Source of the DNA: Dictyostelium discoideum
Lineage: Eukaryota
DNA: 64,000 nt
NCBI GenBank assembly: GCA_000004695.1
Contig: CM000152.2
Location: 5,728,001-5,792,000 of the forward strand
Direction: 5' to 3'
Positions 2,531-55,164 of the stretch are shown here, one piece after another (position 1 is the first letter of the stretch; the number at the start of each line of letters is the position of its first letter). Under the pieces are notes generated by a model. That model saw only the letters and a program-made list of their open reading frames with translations. It made no database searches and had not been told where the DNA came from. Made by a program: the position numbers and the translations under genes.

Positions 2531-5223
2531 GTAATAATAATACAAATATAAATATAAATACAAATAATAATAATGATAGTAATAATAATAATTGTATTAA
2601 TAATGATTTAAAAAATAATAATAATAATAGTAATAATAATGTAAATAATAATAATAATAATATTAATGATAGTAATAATAATAATAATAGTAATAATAAT
2701 AATATTAATAATAATATTAATAATAATATTAATAATAATAATAATATTAAAAAGAAAAAAAAGAAAAATGAATTTACAGTTTATTTTTCAGTAATTGATA
2801 GTGGTTCAGGTATTGATCCTTATAGTACAAATTTATTATTTCAACCATTTTCATTATCAAGTTATAATGTAAATTCAACCAATACAGATGGTGAATTTGG
2901 TTTAGGTTTAGCAATTTGTAAACAATTATCAAATTTAATGAACGGTGAAATTAAATATGAAACAGAAATGGAGAAGGGATCAGTTTTCGAGTTACAAGTT
3001 CCAATGAAATGTGATAGTATTAGCTCAATTACTTCCTCGATGAATAGTACTACTAATACCACCAATCATTATCCAAGAATTATGAATAATCAAAGTTCAA
3101 AGTTTTTTGCAAACTCTAAATGGGGCGAAGGCTTAAAGATATTGGTTATTGATGATAATCCAAACATTGGAAAAGTGATAGCAATGCATTTGGAACCATT
3201 TGGATTTAAAGTTTTCCAAAGAACCACCTTTCAATCGGCTATTTATTTCTTTAATGAACGTAATGGTGATTTCAATCTAATTCTTTTGGACCCATTGATT
3301 CCTTCATTGGTAATCGATGAGATTAAACAAATGAAACAAGATTCTTCCAATATCATAAAGAATCCACCTTTGGTAATAATGTGTACCGCTAAACTTAGAA
3401 AATCTTTAAATGTTGATAATGTTCATTACCTCTATAAACCAATTAAAAGAGAACAATTAACTGTACTCTCTCAATTATTACCAAATACTTCAACAATTAA
3501 TCCAATTTATTCAAATCAAAATTTAAATAATAGTGGTAGTAGTAATGGTGGTGGTGGTGGTGGTGGTGGTGGTGGTGGTGGTGGTGGTGGTGGTGGCAGT
3601 GGTAGTAGCAATATTGATTTCAATAAAACTAAACTTGGTGGTTCTAATATTTCAACTGGTATTGGTAATAGTGGTTTAATTAATAGTAATAATATTCCAA
3701 CTCCAGTTAATACACCTTCAAATATTATTCCAAATTTACTTTCTTGTCAATCATTATTAACAAGTTTAAATAATGCAAATATTCCTCAATTAACAAATGA
3801 TATTGGTATAACAAATAATAATATTAATAATAATAGTTTAATGTTTACAACACCAAATTCAACACTTAGTAATAATGGTATTACAGGTTTAGATAATAAT
3901 AGTAATAATGATACTGGTAGTATTGATAATAATAGTAATATTAGTACAAATATTGATAATAATAATGATTATTTTATTAGAAATAATGGTATTCCTCCTC
4001 AAAATGATATGAATACTTATAATAATTATGTTTTAAATCATCAACAAGGTGTTCTACCAAAATCATTATCAGTACCATCCACTCCATTATCATATAATAT
4101 GTTACCAACAAATCTAAACATTAATGCAAAGAGATCTTCATTACAACCATTAAATGAAAATTCAGTTTTACCAACAAATTTAACACCTCCAATTTTATCT
4201 GCTTCACCTCAATCTTTACTTCCAATGGGTAATGATATTAATTCAATATTACCAAATACCCAACAATCACAAATAGATTTACAATCACAAATCGAATTAC
4301 AACCACTTTTACAATCAACTATAATTAGAAATGATCGTGGTGGTGATATTTTACCTGATTCAACTTTAGAAGGTCAAATAACAAATTTAAGTGGTAATAA
4401 TTCAACCATATCAATAAATCCACCATTACCAGAAACTAATAACAACACAACAACAACGACAACAACAACACAACCAAAGAAATCACCGATATTAACATCT
4501 TCAAATGGTAGTGATAAGAGTGAAGGTTCGACTGGTAGTAATAGATCAAAATCTAGAATTTCCTTTTTAAATTCAAGTAATAGTGGTTTATTAAAAAATA
4601 ATCTTGGTGAAGATATTTATTGTAAAGGTGATCAATCTGAAGGTATTCCAATACCAAAATCTGAAAGAACTTCTGATTCTTCATCTTCATCTTCTTCCTC
4701 TGATTCACATGGCCAAGATGATCATTCATATAGATTGGAAGATTTTTCAATTTCTTCACCATCTTCTCAATCACCATTACTAGATTTAAGTGGTACAAGT
4801 GGTACAAGTGGTACTACAAATCTTGCAAATAGTGGTATTAATAGTGGTAGTGGTAGTGGTGGTGGTGATATTATTAATCAAAATCAATTAATAACATCAA
4901 ATCAATTATTTCAACAACAACTACAACAGCAACAACAACCACAACAACAACAACCACCAGGAACTCCAACAATTTCACCATCATCATCATTCCCATTATT
5001 ACCAATACCAAGAGATATCATTAATAGCAGTGGTGCAAGTAGTGGTATTAAAGTTAAATCGTCAACTTCAATACCAGATTATGTACAAGTTTCACCAAGA
5101 AGATTTAGTGGTAGTAGTACAGGAAGTGGTAGTAGTGTTGCATCACCTCAATTACTTTCAACTTCAAATCAATTAAATAATAATATTAATAATCTTAACC
5201 TTAATAGTAATAATAATAACAAC

Positions 5224-10856: not shown

Positions 10857-11417
10857 TCACACATAAACGATCGTATATAAATTTAAAAAAAAAAAAAATG
10901 GAAAAACCTGATTTTGTAAAAATCGATACGAGTGAATTAAAAGATCAGAATAATGATTCAATACTGTTAATATAATTTTAGATTCTCCAATTTTTGACAT
11001 TAATAATAAATTTCGACTAATCAATTCATTACCTCTTGGATGACCCAATTTTAATAAAAGTTGTAAACCCAATACTCCCAATGCAAAGACATCCTCATTA
11101 TCTTTAATTGATGATTTCTTTGGTTCTTTAAAGTGTCTTTGAAGTGATACATAGTTTATTTCACCTTTAGTATCATCGAATCTAATTGGAGTCAATTCAT
11201 TGATTAGTTTTGAACAACCAAAATCAATTAATACAATTGGATTTTCGAATACTGACTCACTTAAAAAACAAAAACCATCACTTACAAATACAATTTTATC
11301 AAGCTCATATGTGCTCAATAGAGTTTTTAAATTGATAAACAAACCCAAAAAATGTTTTACAATTGTTAATTGTAAACAAAAACGATTTCCCTCCGGATAG
11401 AACAACAACAACAACAA
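10857..11417 (-). pseudogene. truncated kinase-like paralog (C-lobe only) of the 8810..10483 gene
   Basis: ORF translation (LIDFGCSKL...IKDNEDVFALGVLGLQLLLKLGHP) aligns with the C-terminal half of the neighbouring kinase (LGDFGCARK...IRDNEDIFSLGVLIFEMLLTFVHP). No in-frame N-lobe or ATG upstream, and the upstream space is occupied by the psmA1 3' exon. Confidence 0.45.
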
Positions 11418-11736
11418 ACAACAACAAACAAATTATGAAGATGGTGCCCTTTTTTCAAATGTAATTTCAAATGGATCGTTTATAGATGTTATGTAATCAA
11501 AAAACCATTGGAATTTCACCAAAACAAAGATCAAGATTAAATAATAATAATAAAAATAAAATCAAATAATAATAAAAATTTAAATATCTCAATATATTAC
11601 ATTGTTTTTTTATAACACTAAAAAAAAAAAAAAAGAATGATTTAATAATTTTATTATTACCAGATTATCTACACTTTTTTTTTTATTACTTTATTTTTTT
11701 TATTTTCTTTTTTTTTTTTTGGTTTTATAAATTATA

Positions 11737-14554: not shown

Positions 14555-15011
14555 TTTAAACAAAAGTTTGTAACATTTTGACAATTACCAAAAAAAAAAT
14601 AAAAATTAATATTTAATTTTTATTTTTATCATTCAACAATTATCAACAACAACAGTCATAAAAAAAAAAAAAAAAAAAAAAAGAAACACCTCCTTCACTA
14701 TCAACTTTATACATTTAGATAAATTTATTTTTATTATTTGAAGAGCAATCAAATATTAAAAAAATTATTAAAAAAAGAAAATTTATCAAACAAAAATAAT
14801 AATAATAATAATAATTTTTAATAACAAATATTGTAATGATTTGAAATTGATAAATCCATATTATTGGACTTAATTTCATTGAAAAAAAAAAGATATAATA
14901 ATTATAGAAATAAATAAAATCTATATATTATTTTTTTAATATTTATTATTAAAAACAAATTTAAACTTTATTTTATTATTATTTCTTTTTTTTTTTTTTT
15001 TTTTTTTTTTT

Positions 15012-23385: not shown

Positions 23386-23467
23386 GACATCGTAGCGAAG
23401 TGGTCTAACGCGTTTGACTTGAAATCAAATCTCCTAGGAGGCGCAGGTTCGAACCCTGCCGATGTCG
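23386..23467 (+). tRNA. tRNA-Ser (anticodon UGA)
   Basis: 82 nt. Acceptor GACATCG/CGATGTC plus discriminator G; anticodon stem TTTGA/TCAAA with loop CUUGAAA; long variable arm CTCC-TA-GGAG; T-arm GCAGG-TTCGAAC-CCTGC. Confidence 0.85.
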
Positions 23468-23497: not shown

Positions 23498-23508
23498 GGT
23501 TCGATTCT
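23498..23508 (+). promoter_or_regulatory. extra B-box (ex-B) downstream of the tRNA gene
   Basis: GGTTCGATTCT lies about 30 bp past the tRNA 3' end, matching the pol III B-box consensus with no accompanying acceptor stem. Confidence 0.5.
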
Positions 23509-23520
23509 GTATAACAATAC

Positions 23521-23990
23521 ACACCAAACAAATCCCTAATTCAACACCATTCAAATTATTTGATTTAAATTTATGTCTTTAAGTTTTTGCTACATCTGCG
23601 TAAAGAAAACACTAGAACTAATCAAATTGAAAAACTTCACATTCATTGAAACAGGTATAGTCAAACAAAGGCCACCAAAGAAACAGATACAAAAACAATA
23701 ATGTTTTAACAGAACTACACAAAATAATAGGAATGATCGTGGGAATGATCGTGGTGAAGTTAACCAATACAAAGCAAATCTTCGATTCCACAAAGATTAC
23801 TTTTATTCCACAAAGATTACTTTGAGAGGGAAATCAATGTGTAAATTATGACCTATCTAGATACTTATAGAAACATAATTCATAACACCTGGGTTTGGAT
23901 CTACAATCAATTGTATAGCGACAAACCCTCCACAGATGAAAAACTATCTGTATTTAAATCTAAAAACTCTTAAATAAACCACGATTTTTT
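23521..23990. mobile_element. possible remnant of a tRNA-targeted retroelement (TRE3-like position), or a complex non-coding island
   Basis: Compositionally distinct (less AT-rich) block starting about 55 bp downstream of the tRNA and ex-B. Internal short tandem duplications (gaatgatcgtgg x2; attccacaaagattactttt x2). No ORF. Confidence 0.25.
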
Positions 23991-24283
23991 TTAATACCTT
24001 AATATTTCAAATAATTAATATCTGAAAAAAAAAAAAAAACCATCCTAACTACAAATTGACATTGAAGCTTCTTTTGCCTCAAATATATGCAACACTACTA
24101 AATACATTATACCTAATAAAATTAAAATTTTCTTAACATGTTATAATTAGTGAAAAAAAAAAAAAAAAAAAAAGACGTCATTGTAACTTGTGTTATAATA
24201 ATTTCTTTCTTTTTATAATTATTTTATTTTGGAAAAAATAAATTTTGTACAAATACTATTATTATTATTTATTAAATTTATTT

Positions 24284-53208: not shown

Positions 53209-53538
53209 TAAAAATGATAAATAAATGTAAAGTTCATTGTTACTTTACGAATTTCAGTTTTATGAAAACTGAAAATAAAAAAAAATAAAAAATATAAACA
53301 ATTTTTCGTTTTTCACTTCCAATCTAAATAAAACATTCTTATTATCTATTTTTGGATTACTAACATATTTAATTATATAATTACTTTATTATTATTGTAC
53401 TTTACAGTTGTAATTTTTTTATATAAGATGACTTGAGATGAGTAACTGGAGTGTCTAATTTTAGGAATTTTAAAAAAAAAAATCAAATAATTTTTGTTCG
53501 ATTGATGTTGAATTATCATAAATTGATTTAATTCAACA

Positions 53539-53549
53539 GGAATCGAACC
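53539..53549 (-). promoter_or_regulatory. extra B-box (ex-B) downstream of tRNA-Ser(GCU)
   Basis: Minus-strand GGTTCGATTCC about 30 bp 3' of the tRNA. Confidence 0.45.
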
Positions 53550-53579
53550 TGTGATACAGGTTTTAATGCACTAAAAATT

Positions 53580-53660
53580 CGACACCTGCAGGGTTCGAAC
53601 CTGCGCCTCCGAAGAGAACGCCTTAGCAGGGCGCCGCATTAACCACTTTGCTAAGGTGTC
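53580..53660 (-). tRNA. tRNA-Ser (anticodon GCU)
   Basis: Minus strand, 81 nt: GACACCT-TA-GCA-AAGTGGTTAA-TGC-G-GCGCC-CUGCUAA-GGCGT, long variable arm, T-arm GCAGG-TTCGAAC-CCTGC, AGGTGTC-G. Confidence 0.85.
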
Positions 53661-53983
53661 ATTGAAAACCAAATGGGTTATACACTTTGCTAAGGAGTTA
53701 TCGAAACAAAACAACAACAATCTCTTTTTTTGACTATCTCAAGGAGAAGCAAATAATAATTGCGTTATCCAATTCAAAAAAAAAAAATCTCTTTTTTTGA
53801 TTATTTCATTTTTCATATAAAAAGACTTAAAAAACAAATAAATAAATAAATAAACTATTTTAAAAAGCCATATTTTTACTTTATTGTAATTTATTATTTG
53901 TTTTGTTTTGAAAAAAGAAAAAGATAATCAAAAACAACAACAACAATCTCTTTTTTGATTGTTTCATTTTTCATATAAAAAGA

Positions 53984-54017
<34 letters not shown>

Positions 54018-54446
54018 GGGAACCAATTTAATCAGAAAATTTCCAGATTTTTAACTTTTTAAAGTAAAATAAAAAAATAGAAAGAAAATAAGATGAAAAT
54101 TACAATCAACACCACAAATATTAAGCAACACAAATGCCTACAAAAAATAAGTGAAATTGTGGATAAAACTCAAATAAAAAAAACAATTCAAATATGTCAT
54201 CAAAATCAATCATGAAACTGATGATAAAATAAAAAAAGATTTAGAAAAAAGTTTTGACAAAAAAGATGTTTTAATCAAAAGTAATAATACAATTCAAAAT
54301 TTGAACCTAAAAAAAAAAAAAAAAAAAAAATAAAAATGCAAACTAACCCCTCTTTTAGAGACCCTGTAAAAAACTACAAATAAAATGAGATCTAGCATCT
54401 CAAGGAGAAGCAACTAATAATTGCGTTATCAAATCCAAAAAAAAAA

Positions 54447-54840
54447 GTGTCATCGAAAACCAAATGGGTAATACACTTTGTTAAGGTGTCATTGAAAACC
54501 AAATGGATAATAACTTTCTTAAGGTGTCATCGAAAACCAAATGGATAATACACTTTGTTAAGGTGTCATTGAAAACCAAATGGGTGATACACTTTGCTAA
54601 GGTGTCTTTGAAAACCAAATGGGTAATACACTTTGTTAAGGTGTATCGAAAACCAAATGGGTGATACACTTTGCTAAGGTGTCATTGAAAATTATTTGAG
54701 TGATACACTTTGCTAAGGTGTCATTAATAATTATTTGGGTGATACACTTTGCTAAAGTGTCATTAAAAACTATTTGAGTGATACACTTTGCTAAGGTGAT
54801 ACACTTTTCTAAGGTGTCATTGAGAACTATTTATGAAAAT
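54447..54840. repeat. tandem array of about 10 copies of a 38-39-bp unit (gtgtcattgaaaaccaaatgggt(a/g)atacactttg(c/t)taag) derived from the 5' end and upstream flank of tRNA-Ser(GCU); 1.5 further copies abut the tRNA at 53661..53712
   Basis: Unit boundaries at 54447, 54486, 54524, 54563, 54602, 54641, 54679, 54718, 54757, then partial copies. The 17 nt cactttgctaaggtgtc equals the first 17 nt of the tRNA (acceptor and D-arm). Confidence 0.85.
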
Positions 54841-55164
54841 TTTAAAGTTCACCTAATTTTTGGCCGGTCTTTAAAAAAATTCATATTGATATTCAATAAA
54901 CCATTCGATTGGGTTATTTACACCCAATCATATTGTATTTTTAGAATATTCATATGCCATAAAAAATAAAAATATGATAATATCCTCTAAAGTAATACTC
55001 TGCAAACTCGATTTCGAAAAAATAATAAAATGATGTGTTATCTGAAATTTTTGTTTAATCATTTTATCTTATTTCCAAAAAAAAAGAATAAAAAATGATA
55101 AAATTAAAAAAAAGTAAAATGATAAAAATATTAAAAAAAAACAGATTTTATAAATTTAAATCTG

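Follow-up and report, generated by a model that had tools for sequence, protein, structure and literature searches.

A 39-bp minisatellite derived from tRNA-Ser(GCU) and a degenerate TRE5-A derivative upstream of one Dictyostelium discoideum tRNA gene

The DNA analysed here, called the window below, is a 64-kb stretch of chromosome 3 of Dictyostelium discoideum AX4, and positions are counted from its first nucleotide. ARAGORN and Rfam agree on a tRNA-Ser(GCU) gene on the minus strand, where the first-pass annotation of the sequence had placed it. The gene lies 30,194 bp from tRNA-Ser(UGA), the same distance as that between SerUGA-6 and SerGCU-6 in Table S2 of PMC5391098, which identifies it as SerGCU-6, and the published SerGCU primer GAGAACGCCTTAGCAGGGC matches this gene. 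The gene and the box downstream of it are as follows.

53580..53660, minus strand: tRNA-Ser(GCU), copy SerGCU-6, AX4 chromosome 3; nucleotide +1 is 53660 (ARAGORN and Rfam)
53540..53549, minus strand: external B box (ex-B box) GGTTCGATTC, 31 bp downstream of the tRNA gene (B-box pattern match)

The B-box pattern GGTTCRANYC has six matches in the 64-kb window, where 0.49 is expected, and they are confined to the inside of the window's two tRNA genes and to one site just downstream of each. A downstream external B box is a feature of many D. discoideum tRNA genes. Integrations of TRE5-A(bsr) have been mapped to SerGCU-6 with 29, 8636 and 373 counts (PMC5391098, Table S2), which makes this gene a live Pol III target.

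Upstream of the gene lies a tandem array in two parts. In the orientation of the tRNA, its unit is GACACCTTAGCAAAGTG + TATCACCCATTTGGTTTTCAAT, which consists of tRNA nucleotides 1-17 and the 22 nt directly 5' of the gene and thus spans -22 to +17 relative to the gene.

53661..53706, minus strand: proximal array stub of 1.2 units, made of the genuine 5' flank (22 nt), a pseudo-5'-end (17 nt) and 7 nt of a further unit
54447..54840, minus strand: distal array of about 10 units of 38-39 bp (Tandem Repeats Finder and repeat search)

The distal array was described in the first-pass annotation as about ten head-to-tail copies, and both programs recover it as such. Tandem Repeats Finder reports 54447-54798 with period 39, 9.1 copies, 89% matches and a score of 466; the higher-order periods 77 and 116 score better than 39, and at the 77-bp period the units alternate in pairs. 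An 18-bp partial duplication is located at 54778-54816. The repeat search returns 12 in-register copies when the gene's own 5' end is counted, and only the last unit runs on into a complete tRNA gene. Two unit subtypes are present in the distal array, CCATTTGGTTTTC on the retroelement side and CAAATAATTTT at the opposite end, and the point variants among the units fit unequal crossing-over, as had been proposed. The proximal copies do abut the gene, although they amount to 1.2 units ending at 53706 and not to 1.5 units ending at 53712, because the last six bases (53707-53712) are retroelement sequence. Neither oligo(A) nor retroelement sequence nor duplications were found at the boundaries of the array units compared. 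The open reading frames 54481-54669 (minus strand), which lies wholly in the array, and 54778-54969 (plus strand), which begins in it, are array-derived and hence spurious, as suspected from the start.

With at most one mismatch, the A-box consensus has seven sites, namely the gene's own A box and six array units, which match at 10 of 11 positions; every array unit carries a truncated A box. No match to GGTTCRANYC was found in any array unit in the 64-kb window. Recruitment of TFIIIC needs a B box. Because the units lack one, the array is unlikely to bind TFIIIC autonomously, which speaks against the earlier idea that its A-box-like fragments attract this factor.

The proximal stub and the distal array are separated by 740 bp that align to retroelement copies at three other loci (L007, L008 and L009). 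The insert is composed of the following parts.

53707..54446, plus strand: derivative of the TRE5-A non-LTR retrotransposon, A-B-C, without ORF1 or ORF2, 740 bp (alignments to L007, L008 and L009)
53707..53733, plus strand: A-module, first part; 5'-truncated by about 14 nt, or joined via ATCGAAA microhomology
53734..53787, plus strand: secondary insertion of 54 bp, a 5'-truncated TRE5-A; the last 40 nt of a C-module plus A12 (first copy of module 2)
53788..53986, plus strand: A-module, remainder; holds both copies of module 3, which are the start of a unit of about 199 bp and the start of a partial second copy
53987..54015, plus strand: A29 run, start of the B-module; the same A-run precedes CCTGGGAACC in L007 (after ORF2 and before ORF1) and in L008
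54016..54299, plus strand: B-module; ORF1 start codon at 54093 (MKITINTTNI...), frameshifted here
54300..54436, plus strand: C-module of about 137 bp; internal A22 tract, degenerate second A tract and 3'-terminal stem-loop region (second copy of module 2)
54437..54446, plus strand: terminal oligo(A) tail, A10, directly abutting the distal array

The modules were identified by comparison with the full-length element at L007, which encodes a 444-aa ORF1 (MKITNNTTNI...) and a 1047-aa ORF2 with an RVT_1 domain (E = 2.5e-33); no endonuclease domain was found in ORF2 at the Pfam threshold. Residue 10 of this ORF1 is Ile, which agrees with the I10* mutant of PMC3159450. ORF2 is followed by an A-run, by the ORF1-start segment in a second copy and, at the end, by a module that terminates in oligo(A). 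The B segment thus occurs once at 3005-3322, ahead of ORF1, and once from 7921 onward, behind ORF2, and window positions 54016-54299 match both copies. The layout AB-ORF1/ORF2-BC is that of TRE5-A, while TRE5-B and TRE5-C lack the 3' B-module (PMC3159450); by this layout, the L007 element is TRE5-A. At L008 an A-module precedes the B-module and ORF1, and L009 carries the same A unit, tandemly amplified.

After removal of the secondary insertion, the A-module of the window, which forms the 5' end as the A-module of about 200 bp does in TRE5-A (its first 14 nt or so ambiguous or truncated), is 94.8% identical (275/290 aligned) to the A-module at L008, relative to which it has lost 28 and 12 bp in two internal deletions. 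The two copies of module 3 in it are 90% identical over 62 nt. Judged from the alignments, the A29 run is a component of the element, the normal spacer between the A- and B-modules, and not a poly(A) tail. In TRE5-A the B-module measures about 290 bp and holds the ORF1 start. That of the window shares 93% identity with the 5' B-module copy at L007, the reference element in which it is duplicated in the 3' UTR, and the B- and C-modules together (54016-54446) are 94.7% identical to the L007 3' UTR. Of ORF1 only about 70 first codons are left, frameshifted, and ORF2 is absent. A search with the 40-aa translation of the B-module ORF gave no protein homologue, and the frameshift-repaired 74-aa peptide matches only B-module ORFs of the D. 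discoideum group.

The C-module has been described with two CbfA sites containing 14-22 homopolymeric T (PMC2661138). TRE5-A elements end in a C-module of 134-137 bp that has oligo(dA)/oligo(dT) tracts and an essential terminal stem-loop and is followed by oligo(A), and the 3' end of the window element is of this kind. Counted from the last non-A base, it has T15, C26, A35 and C38, the bases mutated in the TRE5-A.1 C-module (PMC3159450). C26/T15 and C38/A35 sit in two hairpins read by eye, and a computed fold, with the window set one base off, gives the same two. The name TRE5-A, drawn from the architecture in the papers and these four base positions, is therefore a probable assignment. The window element itself is a non-autonomous deletion derivative and not a complete TRE5-A member.

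The 5' end of the element points toward the tRNA gene and is separated from nucleotide +1 by 46 bp, and a 12-bp target-site duplication of array sequence flanks it (GAGTTATCGAAA at 53695-53706 on the left and GTGTCATCGAAA at 54447-54458 on the right; the copies differ at two positions). The duplicated target spans -35 to -46. In the literature, TRE5-A integrates 47 ± 3 bp upstream of tRNA genes in fixed orientation with duplications of 10-16 bp, and genomic copies are reported 37-211 bp upstream. The first-pass annotation had pointed to TRE5 elements and to a window 48 bp upstream of the gene, and both the module alignments and the spacing bear this out. The identity and order of the parts, their orientation, their distance from the gene and the duplications are direct observations, with one ambiguity of about 14 bp at the 5' junction, where the A-module begins with GAGATCGAAAAAAAC, which is similar to GTCATCGAAAAC in the array. 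In an alternative reading of this junction, the element would be full length and lie 33 bp upstream, with no duplication. A different partition, with 54016-54446 as a 5'-truncated BC fragment joined at -52 and module 3 assigned to the tail of a different element, was ruled out by the L008 and L009 alignments and a base recount.

The secondary insertion is oriented like the main element, lies 24 nt inside its 5' end and is flanked by a 13-bp duplication, TCTCTTTTTTTGA, at 53721-53733 and 53788-53800. It is identical at 52/52 positions to the C-module tail of the full-length L007 element and 100% identical to L008 6532-6583. Depending on how the CT at its 5' end is counted, it is located 73-76 bp upstream of the tRNA gene, outside the peak of 47 ± 3 bp and within the range of genomic copies. 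The doubling of modules 2 (94% identity over 50 nt) and 3 had been noticed correctly, and the oligo-A-terminated modules were proposed as possible footprints of retroelement 3' ends. This is right for module 2, a TRE5-A C-module tail whose copies match the full-length element at 100% and 94%. Module 3 is instead an internal direct repeat of the A-module in the TRE5-A 5' UTR, and in place of several separate footprints there are one contiguous A-B-C derivative and one small secondary insertion.

No further copy of the insert or of the array unit was found elsewhere in the 64-kb window, and neither the C-module tail nor the tRNA 5' half has an exact-pattern match in metagenome or prokaryote genome collections. 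A literature search for tRNA-derived tandem repeats in Dictyostelium returned no report, and a search for the module sequences as text gave only unrelated papers.

Related arrays occur at other SerGCU loci of the same genome, and the array copies were found only beside SerGCU genes. At L008, arrays lie upstream of three further SerGCU genes; TRE5-A has split two of these arrays too, at an identical point of the unit, and a TRE5-A tail abuts that point at three SerGCU loci. At the orthologous locus of a divergent D. discoideum strain (L002), arrays of about 7 and about 12 units directly abut both SerGCU genes. The 740-bp insert has no match in L002 in a low-complexity-masked blastn search (E <= 1e-3), and a more sensitive search detects only a 52-bp A-module remnant of TRE5-A in one of the two arrays. 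The flanking DNA of the two lineages at this locus is about 92-93% identical; within each genome the units are homogenised, and they differ between genomes (CCATTTGGTTTTCAAT in AX4 versus CCAAAACTTTTGAGAT in L002). Across loci and strains the copy number lies between about 1 and about 12, with 1.2 + 10 in the AX4 lineage, and the test for length polymorphism that had been set beforehand is positive between strains. The orthologous genes of D. cf. discoideum, D. citrinum and D. firmibasis have no array, and neither does the single SerGCU gene obtained from D. dimigraforme, a candidate orthologue; where it was read, over at least the first 100 nt of each gene region, the tRNA gene of the sister species shows 100% identity. 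At this locus a single SerGCU gene is present in AX4, whereas four related genomes carry two, which flank a glycosyl hydrolase 20 gene. SerGCU paralogues are nearly identical, which could blur the published assignment of integration reads to SerGCU-6.

The locus as a whole is, with high probability, best explained as a 39-bp tRNA-derived minisatellite split by a degenerate TRE5-A at its usual site, and the arrangement is ordinary and largely explained. The array is older than this element and independent of it: array units border the insert on either side and overlap by 12 nt, and other SerGCU loci and L002 carry arrays. Since it is present at these loci and absent in the sister species examined, it is a lineage-specific minisatellite, which grows by unequal exchange or slippage and not by retrotransposition. 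From this we infer an order of events. The segment from -22 to +17 of tRNA-Ser(GCU) would have been tandemly duplicated in the D. discoideum lineage, and the minisatellite would have expanded via unequal exchange or replication slippage. TRE5-A would then have integrated at its usual position inside the array, guided by Pol III factors on the real gene, duplicating 12 bp of array and leaving a stub of 1.2 units and about 10 distal units. The ORFs may have been lost later, most simply by recombination between the two B-modules of the element to give A-B-C; retrotransposition of an already deleted RNA is an alternative origin of this form. A second, severely 5'-truncated TRE5-A (54 bp) would afterwards have inserted 24 nt within the 5' end of the first. 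The array itself would have no function.

One of the mechanisms first suggested is that retroelement activity generated the array, with repeated target-primed reverse transcription at -48 each time adding a unit; modules 2 and 3 would then be independent 3' footprints that end in oligo(A). TRE5-A does reuse its site, as the two independent insertions here illustrate, and the common junction at three SerGCU loci and the A-module remnant retained within one L002 array would be compatible with such a process. However, TRE5-A duplications measure 10-16 bp and the unit 39 bp, and the unit includes tRNA positions +1 to +17, none of which belongs to the duplicated target. The clean unit boundaries, the long L002 arrays that abut their genes without the 740-bp element and the place of module 3 upstream of ORF1 in other copies also argue against it; the array is the target that was duplicated. 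This origin is very improbable and largely refuted. An artefact of assembling or sequencing an AT-rich, repeat-rich region, which the low complexity and many homopolymers might suggest, is refuted and retains practically no probability, as the independent chromosome-scale assembly GCA_054883475.1 (locus L001, AX4 lineage) reproduces the identical architecture over the 1.6-kb region with three base differences, all within or beside one A-run, and related arrays exist at other loci and in another strain.

The array might alternatively be a functional cis-element of the SerGCU family, either as a spacer or landing pad that takes up TRE5-A insertions at a distance from the Arf-like neighbour, as A-box decoys for Pol III factors or as a source of small RNA. 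Its occurrence at several SerGCU loci in two D. discoideum lineages, the homogenisation of units within each genome and divergence between genomes, and the six near-consensus A boxes could be read in this way. A function is nevertheless quite unlikely, given units without a B box, a copy number that varies between about 1 and about 12 and absence from the sister species examined despite an identical tRNA gene over the stretches read; homogeneity within a genome is expected from unequal exchange, gene conversion or recent duplication without selection. It is also unlikely, if somewhat conceivable, that a family-wide tRNA-Ser(GCU) 5'-end minisatellite, concerted across loci, together with stacked TRE5-A drives non-allelic recombination or buffers TRE5-A insertions. 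Were it true, copies of a tRNA promoter would shape local genome rearrangement and retrotransposon tolerance, and the direct repeats would bear on the one SerGCU gene of AX4 versus the two of its four relatives.

For the preferred reading, a minisatellite split by TRE5-A, the locus offers a clean natural case of position-specific integration whose parts can be assigned to the nucleotide. With its 39-bp period, the target displays the 12-bp duplication directly as a phase overlap, and a secondary insertion and an ORF-less A-B-C derivative are seen side by side. The array is a minor curiosity, a minisatellite from a Pol III start region that a tRNA gene family has in common and that is homogenised within genomes and divergent from strain to strain; its polymorphism could make it a marker for D. 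discoideum isolates, and it may be a recombination substrate. No new mechanism is indicated.

Compared with known systems, the insert resembles TRE5-A (formerly DRE) in the canonical order of its A-, B- and C-modules, in the ORF1 start within the B-module, in a C-module that carries oligo(dA) tracts, has its stem-loop region at the 3' side and leads into an oligo(A) tail, in a 5' end that faces the tRNA gene at 46 bp, in duplications of 12-13 bp and in a second insertion stacked at the same gene. It differs in that it lacks the ORF1/ORF2 body and has a single B-module, which makes it shorter than TRE5-A.2 (AB-ORF1-BC), and the second insertion lies within the first and not in a clean tandem. 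The proposed exchange between 5' and 3' B-modules would, as in solo-LTR formation, drop the interior and keep the flanking duplication, although here it would involve internal UTR modules of a non-LTR element. The array shares with tRNA-derived SINEs and tRNA pseudogene fragments a tRNA-derived sequence with an A-box-like motif; unlike SINEs, its units have no B box, tail, duplications or dispersal and are arranged head to tail on the parent gene, with copies only by SerGCU genes. With a head-to-tail unit within the range of ordinary minisatellites (10-100 bp), a 39-bp period in about 10 copies of about 89% identity, a 77-bp higher order, and copy number and sequence that vary between alleles, strains and paralogous loci, the array is closest to that class, from which it departs in being seeded from the transcription-start region of a tRNA, in ending in a live gene and in being common to a tRNA gene family.

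The 64-kb window, with a G+C content of ~21%, contains two tRNA genes 30,194 bp apart, which is the spacing of SerUGA-6 (chr3:5751386) and SerGCU-6 (chr3:5781580; Table S2, PMC5391098). This places the window at ~5.728-5.792 Mb of AX4 chromosome 3 and identifies the tRNA-Ser(GCU) gene, which is also fitted at 53580-53660 by a published D. discoideum SerGCU primer (GAGAACGCCTTAGCAGGGC), as SerGCU-6. SerGCU-6 is a live TRE5-A target, hit by tagged integrations in three experiments (PMC5391098), with the caveat that the SerGCU paralogues are nearly identical. The tRNA genes and the features 3′ of them are as follows:

23386-23467, tRNA-Ser(UGA) gene
53580-53660, minus strand, tRNA-Ser(GCU) gene
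53540-53549 and 23498-23507, external B box (GGTTCGATTC), 31 bp beyond the 3′ end of each tRNA gene
~23515-24040, G+C-richer segment ending in A16
24041-24175, second G+C-richer segment ending in A23

In a scan of the window, the B-box pattern occurs inside both tRNA genes and once shortly 3′ of each, and nowhere else. A motif similar to the external B box is found at a similar distance from the orthologous tRNA genes of other species. Within 23498-24175, the two oligo(A)-terminated segments 3′ of tRNA-Ser(UGA), beyond its external B box, look like stacked, 5′-truncated TRE3-type retroelement fragments.

Every repeat that the first-pass annotation listed around tRNA-Ser(GCU) is real. The distal array (54447-54798) has a 39-bp period with 9.1 copies, 89% matches and a score of 466 in Tandem Repeats Finder, which scores periods of 77 and 116 bp higher still and detects an 18-bp partial duplication at the far end. 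Read in the tRNA orientation, the unit comprises GACACCTTAGCAAAGTG and TATCACCCATTTGGTTTTCAAT, that is, tRNA nucleotides 1-17 together with the 22 nt immediately 5′ of the gene; a stub of 1.2 units (53661-53706) adjoins the gene itself. Between the two parts of the array, two further repeats occur twice each, module 2 (50 nt, 94% identity) and module 3 (62 nt, 90% identity). The 1.6-kb structure recurs in a chromosome-scale assembly of the same lineage (GCA_054883475.1) with three base differences, all within or adjoining one A-run, which indicates that it is not an artefact; it is invariant between these two assemblies.

An ORF at 54093, between the array parts, resembles a frameshift-broken protein start. 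The repaired 74-aa peptide had six matches, each a short "hypothetical protein" of D. discoideum or D. cf. discoideum; one of them lies in L007, a full-length TRE5-A reference copy, immediately 3′ of a 1047-aa ORF with RVT_1 (E = 2.5e-33). In L007, a 444-aa ORF starting MKITNNTTNI precedes this reverse transcriptase ORF, and the start-codon segment occurs both before ORF1 and after ORF2, with a terminal module and oligo(A) coming after the second copy. This architecture is the AB-ORF1/ORF2-BC layout of TRE5-A, in which the A-module measures 200 bp, the B-module 290 bp and the C-module 134-137 bp, and the B-module is present again in the 3′ UTR; TRE5-B and TRE5-C are without the 3′ B-module (PMC3159450). 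Residue 10 of ORF1 is Ile, in agreement with the I10* mutant, and numbering the C-module backwards from its last non-A base puts T at position 15, C at 26, A at 35 and C at 38, which are the bases altered in the published mutants (PMC3159450). The long A tracts of the C-module agree with its two CbfA sites, which carry 14-22 homopolymeric T (PMC2661138).

Positions 54016-54446 share 94.7% identity (397/419) with the B and C region of L007, and 53707-53986, with a small insertion excised, share 94.8% identity (275/290) with the A-module that precedes a B-module at L008, the SerGCU-3/4/5 cluster. The A-module consists of ~1.4 copies of a ~199-bp unit. These alignments identify 53707-54446 as a single TRE5-A derivative, arranged A-B-C and without ORFs. 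The proposed TRE5 link holds, and module 2 is, as suggested, a retroelement 3′ end, namely the C-module tail. Module 3 is not an oligo-A footprint of this kind: its copies are the start of the A unit and of its partial second copy, and the A29 that follows the second is the A-run with which the B-module normally opens rather than a poly(A) tail. At a further locus near a chromosome end (L009, 3511-5200), the same ~199-bp unit is amplified ~8.5-fold in tandem upstream of an ORF1.

The derivative lies on the plus strand, with its 5′ end facing the minus-strand tRNA gene at a distance of 46 bp and its 3′ end formed by A10. The flanks GAGTTATCGAAA (53695-53706) and GTGTCATCGAAA (54447-54458) constitute a 12-bp duplication, visible as a 12-nt repeat-phase overlap because both flanks are array units. 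Published TRE5-A insertions have one fixed orientation, their 5′ end pointing at the tRNA gene; most lie 47 ± 3 bp from it, and their duplications span 10-16 bp. In the window, the junction can be placed only to within ~14 bp, since the A-module 5′ end (GAGATCGAAAAAAAC) is similar to array sequence; either the element is 5′-truncated by ~14 nt or it was joined or deleted via ATCGAAA microhomology. Within the element, 24 nt from its start and 73-76 bp from the gene, 53734-53787 (the first copy of module 2) comprises the last 40 nt of the C-module plus A12 in the same orientation, flanked by a 13-bp duplication (TCTCTTTTTTTGA; 53721-53733 and 53788-53800). It matches the canonical tail of L007 and L008 with 100% identity; the older element's tail departs from the canonical one at three positions. 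This is a second, younger and severely 5′-truncated TRE5-A insertion.

Five further genomes were compared at the orthologous locus, which was located via the neighbouring Arf-like gene. In a divergent D. discoideum strain (L002), whose flanks are ~92-93% identical to the window, arrays of ~7 and ~12 units directly adjoin two SerGCU genes; the units are of a distinct subtype (flank CACCCAAAACTTTTGAGAT), and some reach tRNA nucleotide 25. A low-complexity-masked search of L002-L006, the orthologous loci, gave no match to the 740-bp insert. Searching with the A-module alone, at higher sensitivity, gave a 51-bp match in L002, where one array retains a 52-bp remnant of the A-module 5′ end (11142-11200). 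The remnant lies upstream of a 25-nt tRNA 5′ pseudo-start, at a distance of 48 bp; a past TRE5-A insertion seems to have been mostly deleted later, with subsequent array growth on the gene-proximal side. No array is present at the orthologous locus of D. cf. discoideum, D. citrinum or D. firmibasis, where the tRNA gene shows no difference across the sequence compared (at least the first 100 nt of each gene region), or at the one such gene of the D. dimigraforme locus, which lies ~8 kb away on the opposite side of the Arf-like gene. In D. cf. discoideum (L003), an inverted, internally deleted tRNA-Ser-like fragment, with the 5′ half, CCCTG and the 3′ acceptor end and without a B box, lies ~150-190 bp upstream of both SerGCU genes (11665-11720 and 14855-14905), which suggests that tRNA-5′-derived debris upstream of this family is older than the tandem array.

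The array is the target of retrotransposition, not its product. The first-pass annotation, which had suggested repeated target-primed events or replication slippage as its source, is partly right: the TRE5 link and the C-module tail stand, whereas its reading of module 3, the target-primed origin and TFIIIC binding are not supported. Against a target-primed origin, oligo(A) and duplications are absent from the unit boundaries, and the unit includes tRNA +1 to +17, which lie outside the TRE5-A target; the L002 arrays, moreover, adjoin their genes at a locus where the masked search found no insert. The best explanation for the array is a minisatellite specific to this lineage, which would have been seeded by tandem duplication of tRNA-Ser(GCU) positions -22 to +17 and then expanded and made uniform through unequal exchange, slippage or gene conversion. 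The alternation of unit variants (77-bp period) fits an exchange of two-unit blocks. At the locus (window 53579 and below, set against L002 11376-15184, L003, L004 and L006), AX4 has one tRNA-Ser(GCU), whereas a pair of such genes brackets a glycosyl hydrolase 20 gene in each of the L002 strain, D. cf. discoideum, D. citrinum and D. firmibasis. Upstream, the AX4 flank corresponds to the first gene's side and, downstream, to the second's, and the single gene is consistent with a deletion that would have occurred between direct tRNA and array repeats. A GH20 gene of 93% identity lies in the SerGCU-3/4/5 cluster, ~115 kb away.

TFIIIC needs the B box for its recruitment. The scan found no B-box pattern in the array, and its units match the A box at 10/11 positions at most, so that the suggested TFIIIC binding by tRNA fragments is unlikely to occur independently. 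We infer that the array is neutral.

At the SerGCU-3/4/5 cluster, in the same genome, array units lie upstream of all three genes, and two of the three arrays are interrupted by TRE5-A copies at the identical point in the unit. Older TRE5-type copies with divergent C-module tails (e.g. GCAACTAAAAATTGCGTTATTCCAATC) are found at two other SerGCU genes of L008 (6602-7830 and 10120-10260). One such tail has an A-to-C change also present in the window's older copy; these insertions may predate the locus duplication or come from one subfamily. At L007 (1-8357), TRE5-A copies are arranged ORF2-B-ORF1-ORF2-B-C, the 3′ B-module of one running straight into the next ORF1, which points to B-modules as sites of recombination or template switching, an event of the same kind as proposed for the A-B-C derivative of the window. 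The locus is a typical TRE5-A-occupied tRNA locus, and its target is an unusual but ordinary minisatellite.
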